A DNA stretch of 64,000 bases, taken from the NCBI GenBank assembly GCA_937139365.1, contig CAKZPT010000090.1, positions 77,346 through 141,345 on the forward strand. Direction: 5' to 3'. Positions within the stretch are counted from its first letter, which is position 1. Each line of letters starts with the position of its first letter. The notes beneath the pieces were generated by a model, which was not told where the DNA came from, ran no database searches, and saw only the letters and a program-made list of their open reading frames with translations. Both the position numbers and the translations under genes were made by a program. Below are positions 7,912 to 63,206 of the stretch, piece by piece. The DNA is from an uncultured bacterium. Its GTDB lineage: Bacteria > Verrucomicrobiota > Kiritimatiellia > PWTM01.

Positions 7912-8868
7912 CTAACCGATGCCCTCGAAGAGCACGGTCGAGAGGTACCGCTCGCCCGCGTCGGGAAGCACCACGACGATCGTCTTGCCGGCTGCGGCCT
8001 CTTCGCGCGCCACGCGCAGCGCCGCCGCGACCGCCGCGCCGCAGGAGATGCCGCCGAGGATCCCCTCGTCGCGCGCCAGCCGCCGCGCACACTCCACGGC
8101 CTCGGCGCTGTCCACCTGCTCGACGCGGTCCACAAGCGAAAGGTCCAGGACGTCCGGGATGAAGCCCGCGCCGATGCCCTGAATCTTGTGCGGGCCGGGC
8201 TTCAGCTCCTGGCCGGCCAGCTTCTGCGAGATCACCGGGCTTTCGCGCGGCTCGACGGCGATCGACACCAGCGGGCGGCCGAGCGTCTTCTTGATGTAGC
8301 GCGACACGCCGGTGATGGTTCCGCCGGTCCCGACGCCCGAGACCAGGAAATCGACCTGTCCCCCGGTGTCGTTCCAGATCTCGGGGCCGGTGGTGGTCTC
8401 GTGGATGCGCGGATTGGCGGGGTTTTTGAACTGCTGCGGCATGAAGTAGCGCCCGGGATCGGAGGCCGCGATCTCCTCGGCGCGCCGGACGGCGCCGCGC
8501 ATGCCCTCGGCGCCGGGCGTGAGCACCAGCCGCGCGCCGAACATGGCGAGAACGCGCCGGCGTTCGAGGCTCATCGTCTCGGGCATCGTCAACGTCAGCG
8601 GATACCCGCGGGCGGCGCAGACGTACGCCAGCGCGATGCCCGTGTTGCCGCTCGTCGGCTCGATGATCTCCATGCCCGGCTTCAACACGCCGCGCTTCTC
8701 GGCGTCCCACACCATGGCGGCGCCGATGCGGCACTTCACCGAGTAGGCCGGGTTGCGGCCCTCGATCTTCGCCAGCACCGTCGCTTTGAGGCCCGCCGCT
8801 AAGCGGTTGAGCCGCACCAGCGGCGTGCGCCCGATGGATTCCGAATTGTCGGCGTAGATCTGACTCAT
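7912..8868 (-). CDS. cysK: Cysteine synthase A (O-acetylserine sulfhydrylase)
   Basis: The PLP-lysine motif is in [17 protein letters not shown] and [10 protein letters not shown] are the glycine-rich loops of the fold-type II family. The real start is MSQIYADN at 8868; the track ORF is extended upstream. Confidence 0.9.
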
Positions 8869-10052
8869 GTCGCGTCTCCCTTCGCGGATCGCCCGGTCGT
8901 CGGGCCGCCGCCCGCGGCCGCCAACGCCTGGTCCAGGTCCGCGATCAAATCGTCCGCGTGCTCGATCCCGACCGACAGCCGCACCAGCCCCTCCCCGATC
9001 CCGCGGCGGCGCCGCTCGGAGGGCGGGATGGCGGCGTGGGTCATCCGGGCCGGATGGCAGACCAGCGACTCCACTCCGCCGAGGCTCTCGGCGAGGAAGA
9101 ACAGCCGCAGCGCGCCGACGAACCGTTCGACGGCCGGAAATCCACCGGCCAGCTCGGCGCTGACCATGCCGCCAAACCCCCGCATCTGCCGCCCGGCGAG
9201 GGCGTGCTGCGGATGGTCGGGCAAGCCGGGATAGTGCACGCGCTCGACCGCCGGGTGCGCGGCGAGAAAGTCGGCCACACGTTGTGCGTTCCGACAGTGC
9301 GCCTCCATCCGGAGGGCCAGCGTCTTGAGGCCGCGCAGGGCCAACCAACAATCCCACGGCCCCGGCACCGCGCCGACGGCGTTCTGATGCCATTTGAGCT
9401 TTCGGTGCAGTTCGGGATCGGTCACCACGACCGCCCCACCGATCAGGTCGCTGTGGCCGCCGAGGTATTTGGTGGAGCTATGCACGACGAGATCCGCCCC
9501 CAGCTCCAGCGGCCGCTGGAGCCATGGGCTGGCGAAGGTGTTGTCCACCGCGACCCGCGCCCCACATCGGTGGGCGGCCTCCGAGACCGCGGCGATGTCG
9601 GCCAGCCGCAACAAGGGGTTGGTGGGCGTTTCGAGCCACACCAACCGCGTGTCGTCGGTCAACGCCGACAGGAAGGCCTCCGAGTCCTCGGCCGGGGCAT
9701 AGTCGATGCGCAAGCCCCACGGTCGGAAATGGCGTTCGAACAGGCGGTAGGTTCCGCCGTACAGGTCGTCGCCGGCCAGCACGCGGTCGCCCGGCCGCAG
9801 AAGGCTCAACACCGCGCTCGTCGCCGCGACGCCGGAGGCGAACGCCAGCCCGTGCGATCCGCCCTCGAGCGAGGCCAGGGCCGTCTCCAACGCGCGGCGC
9901 GTCGGGTTGTCGGTCCGGGAGTACTCGTAGCCGCGGGGCCGCCCGATCCCGTCCTGCCGGAACGTCGAGGTTTGGTACACCGGCACCGTCACCGCCCCGG
10001 TGAGCGGGTCCGGCTCCTGTCCATCGTGGATGGCCCGGGTCTCGAACCTCAT
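8865..10052 (-). CDS. Cystathionine gamma-lyase or gamma-synthase family PLP enzyme. In this context it is most likely reverse-transsulfuration CGL.
   Basis: AIHDGQ...YSRTDNPTR...[16 protein letters not shown] (the PLP Lys is in STKY). It is 395 aa, starting at MRFETRAIH. There is an ATGA overlap with the upstream CBS stop. Confidence 0.8.
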
Positions 10053-11443
10053 ACGCCCGCCCCCCAGCCGTCCAGTACCGGCCGCCCGTTGCGGACGATC
10101 ATTCGGTCGATGACGTCCATCCGCGTGATCACCCCTTCGCCGAGGCCGGCGCGGGTGACGAGCACCGCCGGCGCGCCGGCGAGAAACAGGCGATAAGCTT
10201 CCGACACCTCCACGGCCGCGTCCAGCTCCGGCAGAGGACGGCCCATCACCGCCGACACCTCCTGGTTGACCAGGTCGATGCCGTCGAACACCAGTTTCAT
10301 CACCGTGGACTCGTTGAGGCAGCCGACCGCGCGGCCGCCGTCCATCACGGGAAGCTGGGAGATGTTGTACGTGTGCATCAACTGCACGGCCCGGCGCAGC
10401 CGGTCGCGCGGCGATACCGCGACCAGCGGCGGCAGCACCTGTTTGGCTTGGAGCACTTCGCCGACGGTGATCCGCTCGCCGGCGGGCCCGTCCCAGAACC
10501 CGTGTTCGCGCATCCAGTCGTCGCTGTGGCACTTGCTCAGGTAATTGCGGCCGGTGTCCGGCAGCAGCGCTACCACCAGCCGCGGCGCGGGCAAACGCTG
10601 CGCCACGCGCAGCGCGGCGGCCACGGCCGTGCCCGACGAGCCGCCCGCGAGCATCCCCTCCTCCCGCGCCAGGCGGCGCGCCGTGCGGAAGGACTCGCGA
10701 TCGCTGATCCGCACCATCTCGTCCACGACCGGCCGATCGAAGGTCCGCGGCACAAAATCCTCCCCGATGCCCTCGACGAGATAGGGGCGGGGCGAGTCGC
10801 CCGAGAGGATCGAGCCCTCCGGGTCCGCCCCCACCACCAGGATGTCGGGGTTGCGCTCCTTGAGGTAGCGCCCGACGCCCGAGATGGTGCCGCCCGTGCC
10901 CATGCCGGCGACGAACACGCCGATCCGGCCACCGGTCTGTTCCCAGATTTCGGGGCCGGTCGACCGGTAATGGGTGGCGGGGTTTTCGCGGTTCGCAAAC
11001 TGGTTGGGGCGCCACGCCCCCGGGATCTCGCGGGCCAGCCGGTCGGCCACGCCGTTGTAGCTTTCGGGCGAGTCGGGCGGCACCGCGGTGGGGGTCACCA
11101 CGACCTCGGCCCCGTAGGCCTTGAGCAGGCGGACCTTGTCCTCGCTCATCTTGTCCGGTAGGACGACGATCAGGCGGTAGCCCTTCACCGCGGCCGCCTG
11201 GGCGAGGCCGACGCCGGTGTTGCCGGCGGTCGCCTCGATGATCACGCCGCCGGGGCGCAGTTCGCCGGCGCGCTCGGCGGCCTCGATCATGGACAGCGCG
11301 ATCCGATCCTTCACGCTCCCGCCGGGGTTGAACATCTCCGCCTTCACATAGATCGTCGAGGGCAAACCGGCCGCCAGCCGTCGCAGCCGGATCAGGGGTG
11401 TGCGGCCGACGGCCTCCAGAACGCTGTCCAGCATGCCGCTCAT
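10049..11443 (-). CDS. Cystathionine beta-synthase: a fold-type II PLP domain plus a C-terminal CBS domain pair
   Basis: GSVKDRIA...ATAGNTGVGLA...GMGTGGTISG is a CysK/CBS-family catalytic core, followed by about 130 aa of CBS domains. The start is MSGMLDSV. There is an ATGA overlap with the osmC stop. Confidence 0.8.
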   Translation of the reverse strand: MSGMLDSVLEAVGRTPLIRLRRLAAGLPSTIYVKAEMFNPGGSVKDRIALSMIEAAERAGELRPGGVIIEATAGNTGVGLAQAAAVKGYRLIVVLPDKMSEDKVRLLKAYGAEVVVTPTAVPPDSPESYNGVADRLAREIPGAWRPNQFANRENPATHYRSTGPEIWEQTGGRIGVFVAGMGTGGTISGVGRYLKERNPDILVVGADPEGSILSGDSPRPYLVEGIGEDFVPRTFDRPVVDEMVRISDRESFRTARRLAREEGMLAGGSSGTAVAAALRVAQRLPAPRLVVALLPDTGRNYLSKCHSDDWMREHGFWDGPAGERITVGEVLQAKQVLPPLVAVSPRDRLRRAVQLMHTYNISQLPVMDGGRAVGCLNESTVMKLVFDGIDLVNQEVSAVMGRPLPELDAAVEVSEAYRLFLAGAPAVLVTRAGLGEGVITRMDVIDRMIVRNGRPVLDGWGAGV

Positions 11444-11889
11444 CGGGGCGTCAAGGAACGGATGCGCAACGTCAGCGGCGTAGGCCGGCCGAGGTTGTCG
11501 GACACGGGGCACCGCGCCTCCACGTCCGCCAGCCATCCCCGAAGGACCTCGGGCGGCGCGTCCGAGTCGAACGACAACGTCGCCTCGATCCACTGGAAGC
11601 CGGCGCGATCGGCGGTCGACCGGTTCAGCAGCCGGTCCGGATTGAGCCCGCCGCGTGCGACGATCTCAAGGTTCCGGAGGGCGATTCCCCGCTCGGCCGC
11701 CACCAGATGGGCGACCACGTTCAGGCAGCCGGCCAGTCCCGCCAGCACCGTCTCGACGGGGTTGGGACCGGCGTCCGAGCCGCCCAGCTCGGGCGGCTCG
11801 TCCACCACCAGCGAAAACTGCCGCGCCGCGACCCGTACGCGGGCCGGCGACTCGGACGCGGCACGCACCTCGAACGTCAGCTCTGGCAT
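11440..11889 (-). CDS. OsmC/Ohr family peroxiredoxin-like protein
   Basis: 149 aa, with the GCLNVVAHL...CPV pattern of the OsmC family (two conserved Cys). Confidence 0.75.
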   Translation of the reverse strand: MPELTFEVRAASESPARVRVAARQFSLVVDEPPELGGSDAGPNPVETVLAGLAGCLNVVAHLVAAERGIALRNLEIVARGGLNPDRLLNRSTADRAGFQWIEATLSFDSDAPPEVLRGWLADVEARCPVSDNLGRPTPLTLRIRSLTPR

Positions 11890-11914
11890 CGCACGGTCTC
11901 TCCCGCCTCGCCGT

Positions 11915-13282
<1,368 letters not shown>

Positions 13283-49142: not shown

Positions 49143-49868
49143 GTGACGGCGGGCGGTTTCGCGGCCGCAGCAATCGCGGCCCTGTTGACGGGCATGGCCA
49201 AATGCGGCGTGCCGGGCCTCGGCATGCTATCGGTGCCGCTGATGGCCATGGCCCTCCCCGCCCGGGCCTCGGTCGGTGGCATGTTGCCGATTCTGCTGGC
49301 CGGCGACGTGCTCGCCATCGCCATGTACCGGCAGCACGCCCGATGGGACTGGATCGGGCGTCTGGCGCCGTGGGTCGCCCTAGGGCTGGCGGGGGGGGCG
49401 TGGTGGTTGTCCCACCTGTCCGATTCAGAGCTGCGACCACTGCTTGGGATTCTCGTACTGGCCATGGTGGCGCTGGATCTGGCGCGGCGCCGTCTGGACT
49501 GGCATCGTCTCGCCCACCACCCCGCGGCCGCCGCGGTCGTTGGCACCGCGGCGGGTATCGCAACGACGCTGGGCAACGCCGCCGGTCCTGTGATGAACGT
49601 CTATCTCCTCGCCCGCGGCCTGCCCCGCCATCTGTTCGTTGGCACCGCGGCGTGGTTCTTTTTTTTCGTCAACCTGACCAAGCTGCCCGTCTTCATCGGA
49701 CAGCGGATGCTCACTCCCGAGCTGGCCCGGCTGACCGCCCTCACGATGCCCCTTGTGGCACTCGGCGGCTTCGTCGGCCGCTGGCTCCTCGCGCGGCTGC
49801 CGGAGCATGTCTTTCAGCGGCTTGTGCTCGCCCTGTCTGCCCTGGCCGGCCTGCGACTGTTGATTTGA
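49143..49868 (+). CDS. TSUP family transporter (TauE/SafE sulfite-exporter-like)
   Basis: 241 aa, with a 4+4 TM repeat. Conserved glycines are in GVPGLGMLSVPLM and TTLGNAAGPVMNVYLL. Confidence 0.8.
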   Translation: MTAGGFAAAAIAALLTGMAKCGVPGLGMLSVPLMAMALPARASVGGMLPILLAGDVLAIAMYRQHARWDWIGRLAPWVALGLAGGAWWLSHLSDSELRPLLGILVLAMVALDLARRRLDWHRLAHHPAAAAVVGTAAGIATTLGNAAGPVMNVYLLARGLPRHLFVGTAAWFFFFVNLTKLPVFIGQRMLTPELARLTALTMPLVALGGFVGRWLLARLPEHVFQRLVLALSALAGLRLLI

Positions 49869-49918: not shown

Positions 49919-51207
49919 TCATCGCCTCGCCAAGGCCGCCGGTCGCGCAAGCTCCTCCGCGCGCAGTGCCCGGTCGAAGACCGCGACGCCGCCAATCCAA
50001 CCGGTGAAACCGACACTGCGTGAGCTGTGGATCACGCGCCCGATTGTGAACGGTCCTCCGCTGCCGTCGTCCGGCGGACGGTACACGCCATGCGGGTACC
50101 ACCATGGGTTCAACCGCAGCGCAACCAGGTCGCACGAAAACTCCGTCCAGCGGCCGCCCGACCCCCGGCGCAGCACAACCTCCACCTTCGTGTAGCGGTA
50201 CTCCCTCCGCTCCATCCGTTCGTCGGGCGTCTGGGCGGATCACGGAAACGCGGGCGGGCTCCTCCTCCGGGGGATTGTACCGCTGATCGGCCGGGTATGC
50301 AGGGGCCTCCCCGTCTTGCAAACCGGGACGAGCCGCATAATACCCCTGCATGTAGGCCCGATACGCGGAGAAGATCAGGCGGTCTTCCTTCGGCCGGGCC
50401 AGCCATCGTTCGCCGGCGACTCCGTCGAGCCAGCCGGTGATCTCATCCCGGTCGTCGTCGAACGTCATCGCGAAGCAATGCCATGCGGCGTCGAGCCTCT
50501 CGGGCGGGGCGTCGGCCGGCGTCTCCGGGGCGACTCCGGCCGAGTTGCACTTGTGCAGCGCGTATCGGTTGAGAAACGAGCCGGCGCCGTTGTCCGACAC
50601 GTGGCCGCAGCCGCTACCGGGCACGTTGAGGCCGGCGAACAACGCATACTGCCGCTGGCCGCGCACCGCGCGCACAATGCCCTCTGTCTTCTTCCGGCGC
50701 AGGTCCGTGCCCTCATGCCAGATGCCGGCCAGCGCGTGGTTGCCGCTCTCCCGGATCGCCCAGACGACCACCGTGAGGGACCGGCCGCTCCTCTTGATGT
50801 CCAGCGGGGTGTCGTGTAGCCGCGACCGGGGCACGAACAGGTACGGGCGAAAGGTCGGATCGTCCTCCCGGCGGATCCGGACCGCCTGGCCGAACGGCCC
50901 GCGGCCGAGCAGCGGAAAGTCATCGTCGGCGGCCTCGCCGCCCGACGCCCCAGAACTCCCGGACGTAGTTGCCCGCGTCGAGGGCGTAGTCACAGGGCGA
51001 CCCCGGCGGAACGTGAGCCGTGAAGGGGCGGGCGCCGTCGGGCTCCCGTTTCACGAAATCCCAGAACGCCACCAGCCCGGGCAGGCTCGTGACGACCGTC
51101 ACCGGCGCAGCGGGAGGTGCCGCGTTGGCCGCCAGCGCCAGCGCCGCCGCCACTCCTACCGTTGCGCACCGGGCGCGCGCCCATGCACCGTGTTCCCGCA
51201 GCCCCAT
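49919..51207 (-). pseudogene. Secreted LamG/concanavalin-like domain protein split over three frames (two +1 shifts)
   Basis: N-terminal piece 50920..51207, with a signal peptide and ...NYVREFWGVG. Middle piece in the frame of ORF 49425..50993: EAADDDFPLLGRGPFGQAVRI...DAAWHCFAMTFDDDRDEITGWLDG. C-terminal piece 49919..50215: ...GPFTIGR...FTGWIGGVAVFDRALRAEEL, a classic LamG C-terminus. The junctions lie at GGG/CCC homopolymers. Confidence 0.4.
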
Positions 51208-51250: not shown

Positions 51251-53713
51251 TCAGATGAACAGGGCCCCGCCGGAGCGGTCGGCCTCGGCCAGGAACGTGG
51301 CCACGCCTCCCAATTCGATCCCGTCCAGCAACTCCTCCCTCCGCAGCCCCATCACCTCCATGGACATCGTGCACGCGACCAGCCGCGCCCCGCCGCGGCG
51401 GGCGGAGTCGATCATCTCCGGCAGCGAGGCGACGTTTCGGCTCCTCATCACGTGTTTCATCATCGCGGTGCCCAAGCCGGCCATGTTCAGCTTCGACAGC
51501 TTCAGCGCCTTGGCGCCACTCGGCATCATCATGCCGAACAGCCGGTCCAAGGCCGTCTTTCCTTCCACGGCGGGGGCCGGGGATTTGCGCAGGGCATTGA
51601 GGCCCCAGAACGTGAAAAACATCGTCACGGGCTGGCCCATCGCCAAGGCGCCGTTCGCGATGACGAAGGCGGCGAGCACGCGGTCGAGGTCGCCGGAGAA
51701 GACGATGATCGTCTGGCCGCGCGCTCCCGTCCCGGCCGGTTCCGCCGCGGGGGCCGGCCGCGCGGCGCCCTTGCGGATCCGCGCGACGGCGTGCCCCCCC
51801 TCGTCGACCAGGCTCACCAGTTCATGGCCGTTGCGATCGCACCAGACGGCGACGTCCGATCGGAATCCGGGATCCGTGGCCCGCACGACCATCTCCTGCC
51901 CCGGCGCCATGGCCTCCATCTCCGCCTTGAGTTTCAAGATGGGGCCGGGGCACTGAAGGGCGGTGCAGTCCAGTTCGCGCGCGACGCCGGCGGGCGCTGG
52001 GGGCGCCTCCATTTTTTCCTCCGCGTAATGCAGCGTCGCGGGCGCCGGCCGGTCGAGTTCCGGCCCGAGCGAACGGTGTATGCAGCGGAACGTCAGCAGG
52101 CCGCCGGCCAGCGTCGCGACGTCCGCAAACCCCGACTGCGCGAGGATCCGATAGGCCAGGTAGCTGCGAAACCCGACCTTGCAGTACACGCGGATGGGCT
52201 GGCTCCGGGGCAGCTCGCCCAGCCGGGCGCGCAACTCGCCCAGCGGCAGGTTACGGGCACCGGAGATGTGGCCGGCCTCGAACTCCGCCGGACTCCGGAC
52301 ATCGAGCACCAGCGCGCCTTCCACGGCGCCGGGGTAATCCTCGGCATACCAAAAACGGACATCCCCGCGCAGTAGGTTGGAGGCGACGAACCCGGCCATG
52401 TTGACCGGATCTTTGGCCGACCCGAAAGGCGGCGCGTAGGCCAGCTCGAGGTGCTCGAGGTCGAAGACCGTCAGCCCGGCGCGAAGCGCCGTCGCGAAGA
52501 CATCGAGACGTTTGTCCACGCCGTCGAAACCGACCACCTGGGCGCCGAGCAGCCGTCCCGAATCGGGAGCGAACAACAGCTTGATGTGCATCGGCGAGGT
52601 GCCGGGGTAGTACCCGGCGTGGCCCGAGGGGTGGAGGTAGACCTTGCGGTACGGCAGGCCGGCGCGGAGCAGGTTTTTCTCGGTGGCCCCCGTGCCGCCG
52701 GCGGTCATGTTGAACACCTTGACGATCGCGGTGCCCTGCGTGCCGCGGTAGGCGGAGGTGCGTCCGGCGATGTGGTCGGCGGCGATTCGCCCCTGACGGT
52801 TGGCCGGTCCGGCGAGCGGGATGTTCCACGAGCCGGGCAGCACGGCGTGCGGCGTCTCGACCGCGTCGCCGACGGCGTAAATGGCGGGGTCGGAGGTGCG
52901 CTGGTGCTCGTCGACGAGGATGCCGCCGCGCGGCCCCAACGCCAGCCCGGCCGCGCGGGCCAGCGTCACCTCCGGCCGGACGCCAGCCGCGAGCACGACG
53001 AAGTCGGCCGTCAACACCGTCCCGTTGGTCAGCTCAGCGCTGATCCGGCCGCCAGACGAGGTGCGGAAAGCAGCGGCCGCCGTACCTAGGTGCAGGCGGA
53101 CACCGCGCGCCCGCAAATGGTCCTCCAGGGGCGCGGACATCTCCTTGTCGATCGGCGGCATGATCTGGTCCACCATCTCGACCAGGTCCACCTCCAACCC
53201 CCGGTGGCGCAGGTTCTCGGCCATCTCCACACCGATGTAGCCGCCGCCGATGACGATGGCGCCGCGGGCGCCTCTGTCCACCCGGCGCCGGATCTCGTCC
53301 ATGTCCTCGACGTTGCGCAGGCACAGCACGCGGGGATCGTCGATCCCGGGCAGGTCGGGGCGGACGGGGACGGCGCCGGGGGCGAGCACGAGCACGTCGT
53401 AGGGCTCCTCGTACTCCGCACCGCTGTCGAGGTTCCGCGCACGGATCTTCCGCGCGGTCCGGTCGATCGCCGTCACCTCGTGGCCGACGCGCACGTCGAT
53501 ATTCAGGGAGGCGCGCAGGCCCTCGGGCGATTGGAGCAGCAGCAGGCTGCGGTCCTTGATCACGTCGCCGATGTGATACGGCAGGCCGCAGTTGGCGTAG
53601 GAGACATAGCGAGTGCGCTCGAGCACCAGGATGCGCGCCGACTCGTCGAGCCGTCGGAGCCGGGCGGCCGTCGAGGCTCCCCCCGCGACGCCGCCGACGA
53701 TGACCACGTTCAT
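51251..53713 (-). CDS. Four-domain CoA-disulfide reductase-like flavoprotein, fused to rhodanese, TusA and DsrE-like domains
   Basis: FAD/NAD domain with the CoADR-type redox Cys in SYANCGLPY. Rhodanese CxxGxR motif in YCKVGFRS. TusA CPxP motif in LQCPGP. DsrE/DsrF-like C-terminus with LVACTMS. 819 aa from MNVVIVGG. Confidence 0.8.
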   Translation of the reverse strand: MNVVIVGGVAGGASTAARLRRLDESARILVLERTRYVSYANCGLPYHIGDVIKDRSLLLLQSPEGLRASLNIDVRVGHEVTAIDRTARKIRARNLDSGAEYEEPYDVLVLAPGAVPVRPDLPGIDDPRVLCLRNVEDMDEIRRRVDRGARGAIVIGGGYIGVEMAENLRHRGLEVDLVEMVDQIMPPIDKEMSAPLEDHLRARGVRLHLGTAAAAFRTSSGGRISAELTNGTVLTADFVVLAAGVRPEVTLARAAGLALGPRGGILVDEHQRTSDPAIYAVGDAVETPHAVLPGSWNIPLAGPANRQGRIAADHIAGRTSAYRGTQGTAIVKVFNMTAGGTGATEKNLLRAGLPYRKVYLHPSGHAGYYPGTSPMHIKLLFAPDSGRLLGAQVVGFDGVDKRLDVFATALRAGLTVFDLEHLELAYAPPFGSAKDPVNMAGFVASNLLRGDVRFWYAEDYPGAVEGALVLDVRSPAEFEAGHISGARNLPLGELRARLGELPRSQPIRVYCKVGFRSYLAYRILAQSGFADVATLAGGLLTFRCIHRSLGPELDRPAPATLHYAEEKMEAPPAPAGVARELDCTALQCPGPILKLKAEMEAMAPGQEMVVRATDPGFRSDVAVWCDRNGHELVSLVDEGGHAVARIRKGAARPAPAAEPAGTGARGQTIIVFSGDLDRVLAAFVIANGALAMGQPVTMFFTFWGLNALRKSPAPAVEGKTALDRLFGMMMPSGAKALKLSKLNMAGLGTAMMKHVMRSRNVASLPEMIDSARRGGARLVACTMSMEVMGLRREELLDGIELGGVATFLAEADRSGGALFI

Positions 53714-54741
53714 GGGGCCTCCATGTCTGACCGCGCTGGCACGGAAAAAAAGCATCTCACGATACCGTCACGGAATGAACAGTGCAAATCATCGGCGCGA
53801 CCAGGAGCAGATGAGGGCGGCGGGTCATCGGCCCAATCGCAGAACAATCCGTCCGAGCCCTTGCCCCGGAGCCTACCGTTGGTGACGAGGCGCCGTCGGC
53901 GACCACCCATGTGCCGCGACCGGACCCATCGAGAAAGACCGCCGCCGCCCCCGCGTGGCACGGCCCGGAGGCCGCCAAAGGCGACCGGCGTCGTGCCCCG
54001 AAATCCACGAAAACGGCCCACGATTCGATGTCCGCGAGTGCTGGCCCGTTACCGCCTCCAGTTCGTACCGATCCCCCCACTGCCGGCGCCGATACAGAGA
54101 AAGGCCGACCCGTCCCACGCGGCCGCAGGCGTAGGCCGAACCGACGACCTCGAAACTGTCCCTCCGGTCGCCGTCCATGAACAGCCGAGCGCCGGCGTGC
54201 ACGCCGGCCGCTGAGCTATTCGCGCCGGCAGTTCCGTCGGCCCCGCCGACGTCAGCAAAACGCCCACGCCGCCGACCGGCGCCCCCGACGGCTCGCCGTG
54301 TAGCACGAACCTCAGGTCGGAACCGATCCGTTTCAACACCTGCAGTCCACTCCACCCATCGGCGGCGATGGCGCCGTGGACATGCACGCCACCAAATGTT
54401 GCGCTACCAGCGACCCCACCCTTTCCCAGGCCCGTTCTACGATGGCGGGCTACGCGCGAACACCGCACACGGTAAAGGCCCCCGCCACGCGCCGAACCAT
54501 GATTCGTGCCCGCCCTGCCCTCCCCGGTGCCGGAGCGGATAGCACGGTCCGGTCCAGCCGGGTGTGCGTCCGCCTCCGCGCTTTTTGATGCCGAGTGAAC
54601 CCGCACTGGAACGACAGCCGTTCGAACGACCGGAACCGATCTTGCCGGCTCAACCGCGACGGACAAAACCCGCCTACGCCCACTCAAATGGTCAACTCGA
54701 ATGATCCGGAGCTTCCGCGAAACATCATGCCGACGGGCAGC

Positions 54742-54778
54742 GGTTGGAGGGGAGGCCCCGCCGGCGGTGGCCTCCAAC
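54742..54778. other. GC-rich hairpin (9-bp stem GGTTGGAGG / CCTCCAACC)
   Basis: The inverted repeat is seen directly in the sequence. No T-run follows on either strand, so it is not a canonical intrinsic terminator. It lies about 100 nt downstream of the small lipoprotein gene. Confidence 0.3.
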
Positions 54779-54876
54779 CCCAGGACCGCAAAAGGACCGG
54801 GGCGGTCAAAGCCTGAAATCGCGCGGCGGAAGCTCGTGGGAGCGCGGGGCGGCCCGCCGCCCGCCGGGCCGCAGCG

Positions 54877-55182: not shown

Positions 55183-56034
55183 TTAATAGAGGACACGGTC
55201 GCCCTCCTCCATGGGTGAAACCGCCCACTCGTTTTCGATGTCCGCGATCGCCATGTGCTCGGCGGCCTGGGTGATCCGGACCTTCCCGATGAGCTGATCG
55301 CCGCGGTGCACCAGCATGTATGCGTCCTTCACCAATCCCTCGCGGGAGCCGATGTCGAGCACCACGAAGTTCCACTCCGTGTTCACCGCCACAATGTTCC
55401 CGTTGAGGCCCCGCGGCATCTGTTTCACGATGTTCGGGTCGTTCAAGTAGCGCGCCAGTTCCAGCTCGAGCCGCCTGACCTCGTCCTTCAAGTCGGCCTT
55501 GTCATTGTCGAGCTTGGCGATCTGCTCCTTGTTCTGCTCGATCGCGCGGTTGAGCTCGCCGATCTTCTCCTGGCGAGCGCCGATCTCGCGCTCGACGCTG
55601 GCCAGCTCAGCCTCCTTTTCGGCGATCCGCTGCCGCACGCCGGCAATCTGGCGGCGGGTGTCCTCCAGCTCCTGCCGGGTCCTCGCCAGCTCCTGCTTGG
55701 TCTGGTTGAGTTCGTCCGTGGTTCGCTTCAGGTCGTCCTTGGCTGCGTACAACTGGTCGTAGCGATTCTCCACCAGGGTTTCGACCACCCGGATCTGTCG
55801 CGCCATCGCGGCCGACTGCATCAGGCTGTTGCGGTCCACCTTTTGGTCGATCGGCTCGATGTAGGGTTCGCGGCCGGCCGCCAGAATTTCGGCCACCTGG
55901 ACGAGGTTGGCCTCGAGCGTTTGGACGCTGTGCTTCAGTTCTAAGCGCCGCGCGAACACCCGGTACTCGAGGAACGCGACGGCTCCCGCCAGAAGGAGGA
56001 TCAGCACCACCATTATCTGAAGAAATTTCGACAT
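55183..56034 (-). CDS. Membrane-anchored long coiled-coil protein with a C-terminal MreC-like beta-barrel domain (paralog 1)
   Basis: N-terminal TM segment IMVVLILLLAGAVAFL. About 180 aa of heptad-rich sequence, TTDELNQTKQELARTRQELEDTRRQIAG... C-terminal GNIVAVNTEWNFVVLDIGSREGLVKDAYMLVHRGDQLIGKVRI, which resembles the MreC beta-barrel block GxV...W...IDxGxxxGVxxxMxV...GLVGxV. Confidence 0.55.
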   Translation of the reverse strand: MSKFLQIMVVLILLLAGAVAFLEYRVFARRLELKHSVQTLEANLVQVAEILAAGREPYIEPIDQKVDRNSLMQSAAMARQIRVVETLVENRYDQLYAAKDDLKRTTDELNQTKQELARTRQELEDTRRQIAGVRQRIAEKEAELASVEREIGARQEKIGELNRAIEQNKEQIAKLDNDKADLKDEVRRLELELARYLNDPNIVKQMPRGLNGNIVAVNTEWNFVVLDIGSREGLVKDAYMLVHRGDQLIGKVRITQAAEHMAIADIENEWAVSPMEEGDRVLY

Positions 56035-56061: not shown

Positions 56062-56916
56062 TTACTGAATGAAGACCCGGTCGCCCGGCTGCACCGGCTG
56101 CCGGAGCCAGTCGCGCTCTACGTCGCCCACCGATAGGTGGTCCCGAACGTCGGAAATCCGGATCCGGCCGACCATCTCCTCGCCGCGGTGGACGAGCATG
56201 ACGGTGTTCTTCTGAAGGCCGTGTTCCTTGCCGATGTCGAGGATCACGAAGTTCCACTGGGGATCCACGATCATGACGTTGCCGCGCAGGTGCTTGGCGA
56301 GGTCCCGGCTGGGCAGCGGCGGCGGCAGGAAGGGGGCCAGCGCGTCCTCCAGCCGCTGTTTCTCCTCCAGCAGCACCTTCTTTTCCTTCTCGAGGGTCGC
56401 GATCTGCCCTTTTTGCTCGTCGACCTGCCGGTTCAGCTCATCGATCTGGCTGCTGAGCTCGTTGAGCTCCTGCCGCGCCTGCGCGATCTGGGCCTCCTTC
56501 TGGGCCAGTTGCTCGTTGAGCATCGCCAGCTCCTGGCGCGCGCCGTCCAGTTCCTGGCGAGTGCGGGCCAGTTCCTGCTGCGTCGCCGTCAGCTCGTCGC
56601 GAGTCAGCTTCAGCGTGTCCCTGGTCTGGTGGAGCTGATCGCAGCGAACGGCGACGTTGGATTTCAGCCCCTCCAACGGCGCAGCCATGGCCGCGGTCGT
56701 CGCGAGGCCCGCGGGGCTCAATGGCTCCCCGAGCGCTTCGACGAACGGCTCGCGAGCCGCCGAGACCTTCTGCGAGATTCGGGCAAACCCCTCGCGCAAC
56801 GTTTTCGCCCGCACCAACAGTTCCTGCCGCTGACGGAACATGATCACTTCGAGGACCAGCGCCCCGATGCTGACCAGCAGCGCCAGGATCAGAAACACCC
56901 GCAAGACCTTGCCCAT
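56062..56916 (-). CDS. Membrane-anchored long coiled-coil protein with a C-terminal MreC-like domain (paralog 2)
   Basis: Same architecture as the upstream paralog. About 50% identity in the C-terminal domain: GNVMIVDPQWNFVILDIGKEHGLQKNTVMLVHRGEEMVGRIRI. The coiled coils are similar too (ELARTRQEL conserved). It starts at MGKVLRVFLIL. Confidence 0.55.
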   Translation of the reverse strand: MGKVLRVFLILALLVSIGALVLEVIMFRQRQELLVRAKTLREGFARISQKVSAAREPFVEALGEPLSPAGLATTAAMAAPLEGLKSNVAVRCDQLHQTRDTLKLTRDELTATQQELARTRQELDGARQELAMLNEQLAQKEAQIAQARQELNELSSQIDELNRQVDEQKGQIATLEKEKKVLLEEKQRLEDALAPFLPPPLPSRDLAKHLRGNVMIVDPQWNFVILDIGKEHGLQKNTVMLVHRGEEMVGRIRISDVRDHLSVGDVERDWLRQPVQPGDRVFIQ

Positions 56917-57033
56917 GACGTTTCCTCCGGACGCTGGCCCCGCGGTCCGGTCCGCGCGCCCGCGGCATCTAATCAACACAAATCCGGACGCAAATGCAAG
57001 ACGAATTTATGGCCCCCGGCAGTCCGCCCGCCC

Positions 57034-62111: not shown

Positions 62112-63050
62112 TCAGGCCACGTCCGCGACGGGCACGGCCGGTTCGCGCGCCGGCGACGGCGCGGCCAGCAGGCGGGCGGCCACCTCGGCGGCCCTTCGAC
62201 CCGAAAACAGCATGCCCGCGAACGTCGGGCCCATCCTGGGTAGACCGTGCACCGTGGCCACGGCCATGCCCGCCACGATCAGGCCCGGAACCACCTCGCC
62301 CGTCCGCTCCACCACCGCGCTCTCCGACGCCTCGACGTCCATCGCACCGCATTCCCCGGCCATGGCCAGGCGGCCGCGCCGCGCCAGGCTCGCGCACACA
62401 CGCGCGTCGTGGCCCGTGGCGTCCACGACGACCCGCGCCTCCAGCGCGATCGGGTCCACGCAGGTGATCTGACGGGGCAGCGCCGCCACGGGGGACCAGT
62501 TGATCACCACCCCCTCCACCCGTCCGTTGCGCAGGACCACGTCCTCGAACCGCGTCATGTTCAGCACGCGGGCGCCGGCGTCGCAGGCCGCGGCGATGAG
62601 CCGAGCACAGGCATGGGGGCCGTCCGCCACCGCCAGTCCTTCGCGGGCAAACCGGTACGGGATGCCCAGCTCGTCCAGCAGCTCGTGGGCGGGTGCTCGG
62701 AAAGTCAGCGGGTTCATCAGGTAGCCGCCGATCCAGAAGCCCCCGCCGACGTAGTTGTTGTTCTCGACGATCAGCGTCCGCCAACCCCGGGCGGCCAGGT
62801 CGCGGGCAGCCATCAGCCCGCTGGGCCCCCCGCCGACGATCACGACGTCGGTGGACAGGTATTGGTCTAGGAGTTCATGGAATCCCCGCGCAATGGCGCG
62901 GCTGATCTCCACCTCGGGTACGGGCGCGAACTTCACGGTTGCTTCCTCTTCGGTTGCGCCGGCGGGGGGGATGACCCGGAGATCCCGCGCGCTCCCGCGC
63001 GCGTCCTCCGCCCGACTCCCTTCGCTGGCATGACCCAGATCAGGTTCCAA
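62112..63050 (-). CDS. thi4: Thiazole synthase Thi4 family (thiamine thiazole biosynthesis)
   Basis: FAD dinucleotide motif [11 protein letters not shown], and the Thi4 blocks [12 protein letters not shown] and [13 protein letters not shown]. The start is uncertain; it may be an internal GTG near 62936. Confidence 0.75.
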
Positions 63051-63206
63051 GGGTCTCCCGCATTCACGGGACTCTCAGGCCGTCTCGCGGCCTCCCCTGC
63101 GATGGTCACCGCATCTAATCTACCGCGGCGGCGTTTGTTTTCAAGGAAGGGGACCGCCGGATCGGCAGGGTCGCCAGACCGGCACCGACCGGTTATGCTC
63201 CGCGGC

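Follow-up and report, generated by a model that had tools for sequence, protein, structure and literature searches.

A CoADR–rhodanese–TusA–DsrE fusion protein from a Kiritimatiellia-type bacterium: an ordinary member of a widespread family and a probable sulfane-sulfur reductase

Results

The gene and its product

The DNA analysed here, which we call the window, is a stretch of 64,000 nucleotides from an uncultured bacterium (contig CAKZPT010000090.1, positions 77,346 to 141,345 of the forward strand), and our subject is a minus-strand gene within it that encodes a flavoprotein resembling coenzyme A (CoA)-disulfide reductase (CoADR), fused to rhodanese, TusA and DsrE-like domains (Table 1). 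An earlier note on this DNA, made from the letters and their translations, had described a four-domain polypeptide of 819 residues. On translation, the gene is one uninterrupted open reading frame (ORF) whose product has 820 residues from its ATG to its TGA. A longer ORF of 834 residues, opening at the ATG at 53755, was considered and rejected. We prefer the shorter start because a GGAGG element is properly placed before it, because the N termini of homologues, of the form M-x-V-V-I-(V/G)-GG, match it, and because an identical public protein (P0001; GCA_036845605.1, contig DAIUDP010000007.1) is called at 820 residues. A plus-strand reading of the same interval was also discarded, as it contains many stops and otherwise yields Arg/Gly-rich nonsense. 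The GC fraction at third codon positions is 0.90 within the gene, in a window of about 70% GC, and the gene is thus genuine and intact. Its closest named relatives in the homologue search come from metagenome-assembled genomes (MAGs) of Kiritimatiellae, Lentisphaerae and Verrucomicrobia.

Table 1. Features of the four-domain gene and of its surroundings in the window. Residue numbers refer to the 820-residue product; pLDDT is the predicted local distance difference test score of the AlphaFold2 model.
Feature	Positions	Strand	Residues	Remarks
Complete gene	51251-53713	minus	1-820	820 codons plus TGA (51251-51253); ATG 53711-53713; coding sequence 51254-53713
Shine-Dalgarno sequence GGAGG	53718-53722	minus		4 nt 5' of the ATG at 53713; read directly from the sequence
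CoADR/Npsr-type FAD- and NAD(P)H-binding pyridine nucleotide-disulfide oxidoreductase with dimerisation domain	52379-53713	minus	1-445	Pyr_redox_2 (PF07992) residues 1-288, E 2e-62; Pyr_redox (PF00070) also matched; Pyr_redox_dim (PF02852) residues 329-431
Cys42 codon	53588-53590	minus	42	in SYANCGLPY
Rhodanese domain	52079-52351	minus	455-545	PF00581 residues 468-539, E 1.6e-15
Cys511 codon	52181-52183	minus	511	in YCKVGFRS
Linker 1 (rhodanese to TusA)	51980-52078	minus	546-578	predicted disordered; pLDDT below 50 at 557-574
L-x-Y-A-E-E motif of linker 1	52025-52036	minus	560-566 region	includes Y563 and E565
TusA domain	51770-51979	minus	579-648	PF01206, E 2.9e-20; 72.3 bits, cut-off 28.6
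Cys583 codon	51965-51967	minus	583	C-x4-C with Cys588
Cys588 codon	51950-51952	minus	588	in QCPGP
Cys625 codon	51839-51841	minus	625	
Linker 2 (TusA to DsrE)	51716-51769	minus	649-666	Ala/Pro-rich, GAARPAPAAEPAGTGARG; pLDDT below 50 at 655-662
DsrE-like domain (DrsE_2)	51254-51715	minus	667-820	PF13686 residues 668-819, E 1.3e-51; 175 bits, cut-off 25
Cys781 codon	51371-51373	minus	781	in LVACTM
LamG/concanavalin-like gene	49919-51207	minus		secreted by appearance; immediately downstream of the four-domain gene
TauE/TSUP gene	49143-49868	plus		E 8e-31; convergent to the four-domain gene
Coiled-coil protein genes, two tandem paralogues	55183-56034 and 56062-56979	minus		upstream of the four-domain gene
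Thi4-family thiazole synthase ORF	62112-63050	minus		public annotation 274 residues
Thiamine pyrophosphate (TPP) riboswitch	62999-63108	minus		65.2 bits, above the gathering score; directly 5' of Thi4
PALP, PALP-CBS and Cys_Met_Meta_PP genes ("sulfur amino-acid operon")	7912-13219			about 38 kb from the four-domain gene

Four domains and their cysteines

The matches to Pfam lie far beyond chance, and the four modules named in the earlier note are unambiguous. The first is a group-3 pyridine nucleotide-disulfide oxidoreductase fold with FAD, NAD and dimerisation domains. Its lone flavin-side active-site cysteine, Cys42, aligns with Cys43 of the Npsr structure 3nta. The NAD-binding motif GGGYIG (residues 156–161) is followed, after beta-2 or the second Rossmann strand, by an invariant Glu179. 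In Rossmann folds generally, a glutamate at this point is a sign of NADH binding, and Glu179 suggests that NADH is the cofactor here. In the rhodanese domain, the loop around the catalytic Cys511 aligns with FCQVGLRG of Npsr, and five residues past the cysteine stands an invariant Arg516, equivalent to R513 of the Enterococcus faecalis CoA-persulfide reductase CoAPR. In the TusA domain, whose family has a two-layer alpha/beta fold and its conserved cysteine in an N-terminal C-P-x-P motif, alignments to 1dcj, 3lvj and 1pav place Cys588 at Cys19 of Escherichia coli TusA (RC19PEP) and in the YCPGP motif of Ta1170. Finally, the DsrE-like domain matches 3pnx at E 5e-28, and its Cys781 aligns with the cysteines of 3pnx (ACQ), 2qs7 (ACS) and 3mc3 (VCV). 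The conserved active-site cysteine of DsrE folds stands where the helix after the central strand begins. The earlier note had allowed that the DsrE-like region might prove on alignment to lack its conserved cysteine; Cys781 is in place.

The TusA domain also carries two cysteines that the earlier note did not mention. Cys625 is equivalent in the alignment to Cys56 of E. coli TusA, and Cys583 occupies a position that is alanine both in E. coli TusA and in Ta1170 of Thermoplasma.

Matches to the curated NCBIfam equivalog models all fall short of their cut-offs, at 84.6 against 210 bits for DsrE2 (NF047629) and at 465.4 against 578.8, 365.1 against 458 and 326.4 against 394 bits for the CoA-disulfide reductase models TIGR03385, NF007123 and NF010037, respectively. 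For this reason the protein should be named neither CoA-disulfide reductase nor DsrE2, and we take the substrate of its reductase module from structural relatives.

Predicted structure

An AlphaFold2 monomer model built from 116 homologues, which we used for domain and linker confidence only, has a mean pLDDT of 88.3 and a predicted template modelling (pTM) score of 0.68. In the model, four domains are well ordered and two linkers are disordered, an arrangement that fits mobile carrier domains. Residues 3–543 match Shewanella loihica Npsr (3nta) at E 2.5e-173, with 49% identity in the structural alignment. In a Foldseek comparison, the first ~560 residues superpose on 3nta and on the related structures 3icr and 8a56 with target TM-scores of 0.93–0.97, root mean square deviations of 1.6–1.8 Å and identities of 45–49%, so the reductase and rhodanese portion is structurally equivalent to known persulfide reductases. 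The structure search returned no Protein Data Bank entry that covers the TusA–DsrE tail in a four-domain context, and solved coverage reaches at most ~560 of the 820 residues.

Linker 1, although disordered, contains an L-x-Y-A-E-E motif that is near-invariant in homologues from the Planctomycetes–Verrucomicrobia–Chlamydiae (PVC) clade and is absent or mostly gapped in divergent family members. This YAEE element may be a docking motif.

Conservation of the cysteines

We examined conservation in two sets, a close set of 120 homologues with 61–100% identity, the best listed among at least 8000 scored candidates, and a divergent set of 52 sequences, comprising the query and 51 representatives of 50%-identity clusters with 35–58% identity. 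Cys42 is kept in 119 of the 120 close homologues and in 48/52 of the divergent set; the corresponding figures are 120/120 and 52/52 for Cys511, 120/120 and 49/52 for Cys588, and 120/120 and 48/52 for Cys781. Each of the four motif cysteines, which the earlier note had rightly read as intact, is thus present in at least 92% of 172 homologues at identities down to 35%, and this retention argues for selection on all four. Three full-length four-domain proteins (P0180, P0189 and P0216) have serine or alanine in place of Cys42 and keep the three carrier cysteines; if this is no alignment artefact, they would be reductase-dead variants.

The additional cysteines of the TusA domain are also frequent, Cys583 occurring in 114/120 and Cys625 in 116/120 close homologues. 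Counted as any cysteine 4–5 residues before the TusA catalytic cysteine, the upstream residue is found in 110 of the 120 close homologues, in 30 of 51 divergent representatives and in 59 of 81 species-level genome hits; for four-domain proteins in general the share is about two thirds. Its spacing is C-x4-C here and C-x3-C in many other lineages.

The persistence of the carrier cysteines bears on an alternative reading of the protein, namely that it is a true CoA-disulfide reductase that keeps CoA, as the main low-molecular-weight thiol, in the reduced state, with C-terminal domains that are accessory or regulatory. Its best NCBIfam matches are CoA-disulfide reductase models (TIGR03385, 465 bits), automatic annotation implies the same function, Bacillus anthracis CoADR-RHD is a close structural relative, and the authors of the Bacteroides fragilis study discussed below argued for a CoA-based role in thiol balance (PMC6158253). 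Nevertheless, we consider this reading improbable. All three equivalog cut-offs are missed, rhodanese-bearing enzymes of the Npsr type do not reduce CoA disulfide (PMC7969121), and the near-universal Cys511, Cys588 and Cys781 would be left unexplained if only Cys42 and CoA mattered.

Spread of the architecture

The earlier note had taken the TusA–DsrE tail to be rare. On the contrary, the four-domain architecture is very common and occurs in many phyla, and the domain order has been described in at least three papers. The 120 best-listed homologues all have the same Pfam set, and nearly all are 786–851 residues long, one having 749. An exhaustive search of 1.84 billion cluster representatives gave 3484 proteins at E<=1e-30. 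The best 150 of these include about 50 cluster representatives (clusters at 50% identity) whose alignments span residues 1–820, and such full-length members are interleaved with CoADR–rhodanese proteins of ~550–580 residues and CoADR–rhodanese–TusA proteins of ~640–680 residues, so that the family forms a graded series. Nine proteins of ~630–680 residues (P0175, P0185, P0191, P0207, P0215, P0221, P0230, P0232 and P0243) align only to residues ~1–650 and have the three-domain CoADR–rhodanese–TusA form without DsrE, which suggests stepwise accretion of the tail.

A scan of genomes, with one genome per species and at least 600 matching rows, gave a similar picture. The best 80 loci, to which we confined ourselves, cover residues 1–820 or nearly so and span about a dozen phyla. 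They include PVC lineages (Victivallales, Planctomycetaceae, Phycisphaerae, Verrucomicrobiota and Omnitrophota), Actinomycetota (Actinotalea, Cellulomonas, Cryobacterium and Microbacterium), Bacillota (Clostridium, Agathobacter, Sedimentibacter and Lacticigenium), and also Treponema, Bacteroides, Anaerolineaceae, Myxococcales, Beta- and Gammaproteobacteria, Ilyobacter, Armatimonadota and Gastranaerophilales. The matches in Bacteroides, Phycisphaerae and Myxococcales genomes span residues 1–820 at about 50% identity. The window protein is therefore an ordinary member of a known, widespread CoADR–rhodanese–TusA–DsrE family, of the type of Pcar_0429 of Pelobacter carbinolicus and BF638R_0572 of B. 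fragilis.

Genomic neighbourhood

Immediately 5' of the gene, the ~1.16 kb at 53714-54876 have no frame-specific signal in third-position GC content. None of the ORFs there matched Pfam, and searches for Rfam families (even at E<=1), for tRNAs and for sigma-70-like promoters likewise found nothing. A gap of this size is unusually long for an intergenic region of a compact bacterial genome. Further upstream on the same strand lie two small ORFs, a methyltransferase gene and the two coiled-coil genes. The coiled-coil pair is homologous (33–35% identity, E 1e-41 to 1e-44) to the gene at L003 10563-11384, immediately downstream of the four-domain gene at the P0012 locus, a case of weak local synteny.

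Past the methyltransferase gene are SufC/B/D on the plus strand and the Thi4 gene on the minus strand. The start of the mechanically called Thi4 ORF overlaps the TPP riboswitch, and the true start must therefore be further downstream. The proximity of these genes, 5–9 kb away, favours a biosynthetic role, in which the protein would supply sulfide or carrier persulfide for Fe-S clusters, for thiazole through Thi4, or for tRNA thiolation through TusA. E. coli TusA is indeed a biosynthetic sulfur carrier, and one relative, the P0042 gene, lies divergent to a cysteine desulfurase/NifU pair. However, the SufCBD and Thi4 neighbours are not conserved and are housekeeping genes in other transcription units, and a reductase module would destroy persulfide sulfur rather than deliver it. 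We therefore regard biosynthetic supply as very improbable. At the P0042 locus itself (L087 1183-2899), the four-domain gene adjoins genes for a cysteine desulfurase (Aminotran_5) and a NifU_N scaffold, and this is the only sulfur-mobilisation neighbour among seven close loci.

On the 3' side, the LamG-like gene has its coding signal in three frames (51207-50920, 50993-~50300 and 50215-49919), and only the piece at 50215-49919 matches Pfam (Laminin_G_3, 4.5e-4). Either two frameshifts in a pseudogene or an error in assembly of the MAG could account for this. Beyond it are the TauE/TSUP gene, a GDSL lipase gene and a gene for a sigma-54 activator.

The earlier note had placed the four-domain gene near a TSUP exporter and a sulfur amino-acid operon. 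The first of these is indeed only 1.4 kb from the 3' end of the gene, but an operon with TauE was rejected, as the two genes are convergent, with the LamG-like gene between them, and their pairing is not conserved; in six close relatives that have long contigs, TauE is absent from the neighbourhood of the homologue. The second lies too far away for a link, and that connection was dropped.

These observations also weigh on a further alternative, in which DsrE and TusA would carry thiosulfonate adducts derived from thiosulfate or tetrathionate, the reductase would cleave them to sulfide and sulfite, and TauE would export the sulfite. Several findings are in keeping with it. The account in PMC4175335 has DsrE3A and TusA of Metallosphaera cuprina binding thiosulfate from tetrathionate and transferring it from DsrE to TusA; in B. 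fragilis, the gene shares its regulation with a thiosulfate:quinone oxidoreductase operon (PMC6158253); and a related cytoplasmic polysulfide reductase is credited in PMC9431562 with thiosulfate reductase activity. Nonetheless, with the nearby TauE convergent, separated by another gene and not kept as a partner in the six relatives or in the 83 loci described next, such a pathway has only a slim chance of being the right one.

For a broader view, all flanking ORFs within ±5 kb of 83 loci were clustered. An ArsR-type helix-turn-helix protein of ~100 residues (Pfam HTH_20/HTH_5) adjoins the four-domain gene in 21/83 loci (L007, L015-L017, L019, L024, L029, L030, L035-L038, L041, L050, L054, L057, L066, L067 and L072-L074), and in 19/21 it is directly upstream on the same strand. 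These neighbours come from PVC bacteria, Clostridia and Chloroflexi and have lineage-specific conserved cysteines, such as the C-terminal xCIRK..C of Planctomycetes, and are plausibly redox- or persulfide-sensing repressors. Thioredoxin is found nearby in 6/83 loci and Crp/Fnr regulators in 6/83, and no TauE, sulfide:quinone oxidoreductase (SQR), persulfide dioxygenase, hydrogenase or respiratory family recurs among the neighbours of the 83 loci.

In the window, neither the ArsR nor the thioredoxin neighbour family gave a tblastn match upstream of the gene. The only significant match, at 52178-52312, was to the rhodanese region of the four-domain protein itself, obtained with the rhodanese-fused ArsR of L037 as the query. 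No dedicated regulator or partner seems to accompany the gene in this genome, where it appears to be on its own.

Discussion

Probable function and mechanism

Taken by analogy with its solved and characterised relatives, the window protein is probably a cytoplasmic NADH-dependent reductase of sulfane sulfur (persulfide or polysulfide) of the Npsr/CoADR-RHD/CoAPR type, which would probably act as a homodimer and to which a CstA-like relay has been added on flexible linkers. The earlier note had proposed NAD(P)H-driven persulfide or polysulfide reduction along the carrier cysteines, and that general idea is supported here; it had already been published for Pcar_0429 (PMC3543383). The note had also read the four cysteines as a complete intramolecular relay, one after the other, and in this respect the two-domain relatives point elsewhere. 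There, the flavin-side and rhodanese cysteines are ~27 Å apart on opposite protomers of the dimer and are not in direct contact; they are linked by a tunnel and by a CoA that is bound tightly and swings its pantetheine arm from one to the other, and CoAPR is persulfidated in vivo on the rhodanese cysteine only (PMC9405070). The high identity suggests a similar bound, swinging CoA in the window protein.

A catalytic cycle consistent with these precedents would have five steps. First, DsrE Cys781 and/or TusA Cys588, moving on their flexible linkers, would capture sulfane sulfur as a cysteine persulfide from low-molecular-weight or protein persulfides or from polysulfide. Second, as in CstA and Dsr relay biochemistry, the sulfur would pass by trans-persulfidation to rhodanese Cys511. 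Third, the tightly bound CoA, behaving as in the homologues, would swing to Cys511, take up the sulfur as CoA-SSH and deliver it, over a distance of about 25 Å, to Cys42 of the partner protomer, beside the FAD. Fourth, attack by Cys42 would release H2S and leave a C42-S-S-CoA mixed disulfide. Finally, NADH would reduce this mixed disulfide by way of FAD.

The C583/C588 vicinal pair invites a variant of this cycle, in which Cys583 would serve as a resolving cysteine. H2S would then be released at TusA and a protein disulfide handed back to the flavoprotein, making the enzyme a self-contained NADH-driven depersulfidase. We found no discussion in the literature of the frequent extra cysteine beside the TusA catalytic cysteine, and a resolving role, which it might have, is speculative; we think it doubtful that the enzyme works in this way. 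If it did, reduction of protein- or carrier-bound persulfides by a resolving pair would be a catalytic logic not described for Npsr or CoAPR.

For the sulfane-sulfur reductase with its relay, several considerations weigh on the other side of the balance. No enzymology of a full-length four-domain protein was found in the literature. The match to the CoA-disulfide reductase equivalog is below its cut-off (465 versus 578.8 bits). The AlphaFold2 monomer, with a pTM of 0.68, provides no inter-domain geometry, cysteine–cysteine distances or dimer geometry. In sulfur oxidisers, the transfer order as set out in PMC9918477 runs from rhodanese to TusA to DsrE and so away from the rhodanese, opposite to the direction proposed above. 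Finally, neither a regulator nor a sulfur-stress partner adjoins the window gene, and its neighbours differ in every one of the six close relatives examined, so that context gives no direct support in this genome.

Physiological role

With respect to physiology, the same chemistry could serve either of two ends. In the first, the enzyme would remove reactive sulfur species and maintain thiol balance, and an anaerobic fermenter might profit from the re-oxidation of NADH as well. In the second, it would be catabolic, a cytoplasmic reductase of elemental sulfur or polysulfide that acts as an electron sink and re-oxidises NADH during fermentation. A catabolic function has been proposed for Pcar_0429 (PMC3543383) and for Npsr/NSR-type enzymes; the closest solved relative, Shewanella Npsr, is implicated in sulfur respiration, and metagenomic bins carrying the fusion have been interpreted as sulfur reducers (PMC7887784). 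Among the best 80 loci, moreover, anaerobic fermenters (Clostridia, Victivallales, Anaerolineae and Treponema) are frequent carriers of the family, and the host of the window gene resembles an anaerobic MAG of the Kiritimatiellia type. Yet members are found as well in Betaproteobacteria and in Actinomycetota that are aerobic or facultative (Cellulomonas, Microbacterium and Cryobacterium). Its recurrent neighbours are small redox-type regulators and thioredoxin rather than respiratory or hydrogenase genes, Archaeoglobus fulgidus has an Npsr but does not respire elemental sulfur (PMC7969121), and the phenotype in B. fragilis is one of thiol-stress sensitivity (PMC6158253). A primarily catabolic role is a serious possibility, although we judge it unlikely.

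We favour reactive-sulfur and thiol homeostasis over dissimilatory sulfur reduction because of the small cysteine-containing regulators and thioredoxin found beside the gene elsewhere and because of the B. fragilis data, and the aerobic Actinomycetota that carry the gene point the same way. This assignment is less certain than that of the chemistry, and the earlier note's remark that the physiological role is unclear still holds.

Neither the fusion nor the idea of a relay is new, both having been in the literature since 2012. Among the elaborations of the CoADR/Npsr family, the four-domain form is one of the commoner, a protein identical to that of the window is already in public databases, and as a discovery the locus matters little. 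Its residual value is that it draws attention to a very widespread enzyme, found across about a dozen phyla and, among others, in gut Bacteroides and Clostridia, that is without biochemical characterisation or an agreed role. Reactive-sulfur detoxification, thiol homeostasis and sulfur reduction are the candidate roles for the family.

Comparison with known systems

The nearest characterised systems are Npsr (3nta; A. fulgidus 6pfz), B. anthracis CoADR-RHD (3icr) and E. faecalis CoAPR (8a56), which are homologous over their full length to residues 1–545 of the window protein and share with it the lone active-site cysteine in (S/F)ANCGLPY, the rhodanese Cys-x4-Arg loop, and the FAD and NADH motifs. 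Npsr prefers persulfides and polysulfide and does not reduce the disulfides of CoA and glutathione (PMC7969121). These enzymes stop after the rhodanese domain, at about 540–575 residues, whereas the window protein has another 275 residues, which form the TusA and DsrE-like domains and the disordered linkers that attach them.

The tail has its own counterpart in Staphylococcus aureus CstA, whose rhodanese–TusA–DsrE order, as given in the literature, is the same as that of the three C-terminal domains here; the likeness is one of domain order. According to PMC9918477, which cites Higgins 2015, persulfide transfer from the rhodanese to the TusA cysteine has been observed in CstA. In contrast to the window protein, CstA has no flavoprotein reductase and acts within a CstR-regulated operon, together with SQR and persulfide dioxygenase, in an oxidative route of detoxification. 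Of these cst-type operon partners (a CstR repressor, SQR and persulfide dioxygenase), none is found in the neighbourhood of the window gene, and none recurs as a neighbour family in the 83 related loci.

A similar set of carriers is used in the DsrE2/DsrE3–TusA–rhodanese relays of sulfur oxidisers (the Dsr system of Allochromatium vinosum, the sHdr system, and DsrE3A/TusA of Metallosphaera), which have the same three folds and conserved cysteines. There, however, the carriers are separate proteins that feed DsrC/DsrAB or sHdr, whereas the window protein joins them to an NADH-driven reductase in one chain, and neither dsr nor hdr genes lie near its gene.

The closest correspondence is with proteins of the same architecture. 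Pcar_0429 of P. carbinolicus, reported in 2012, is the exact fusion; the same relay with reduction by NADH/FAD was proposed for it, and it was suggested to be a sulfur reductase (PMC3543383). A "DsrE-Npsr-TusA fusion" described from lake metagenomes in 2021 was reported with two rhodanese regions (PMC7887784). For B. fragilis BF638R_0572, Table 3 of the 2018 study lists CoADR at 14–440, rhodanese at 462–540, TusA at 589–657 and DrsE_2 at 671–825 (PMC6158253), a domain table that is nearly superimposable on that of the window protein. Its gene is de-repressed ~50-fold in a bmoR mutant, and its loss increases sensitivity to diamide (PMC6158253). In B. fragilis, a MarR-type repressor, BmoR, controls the gene, whereas the window gene has no regulator adjacent to it. 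At the level of the protein, the window sequence and its PVC clade differ from these published orthologues in having the additional Cys583, which forms the C-x4-C pair in TusA, and the YAEE element in linker 1.

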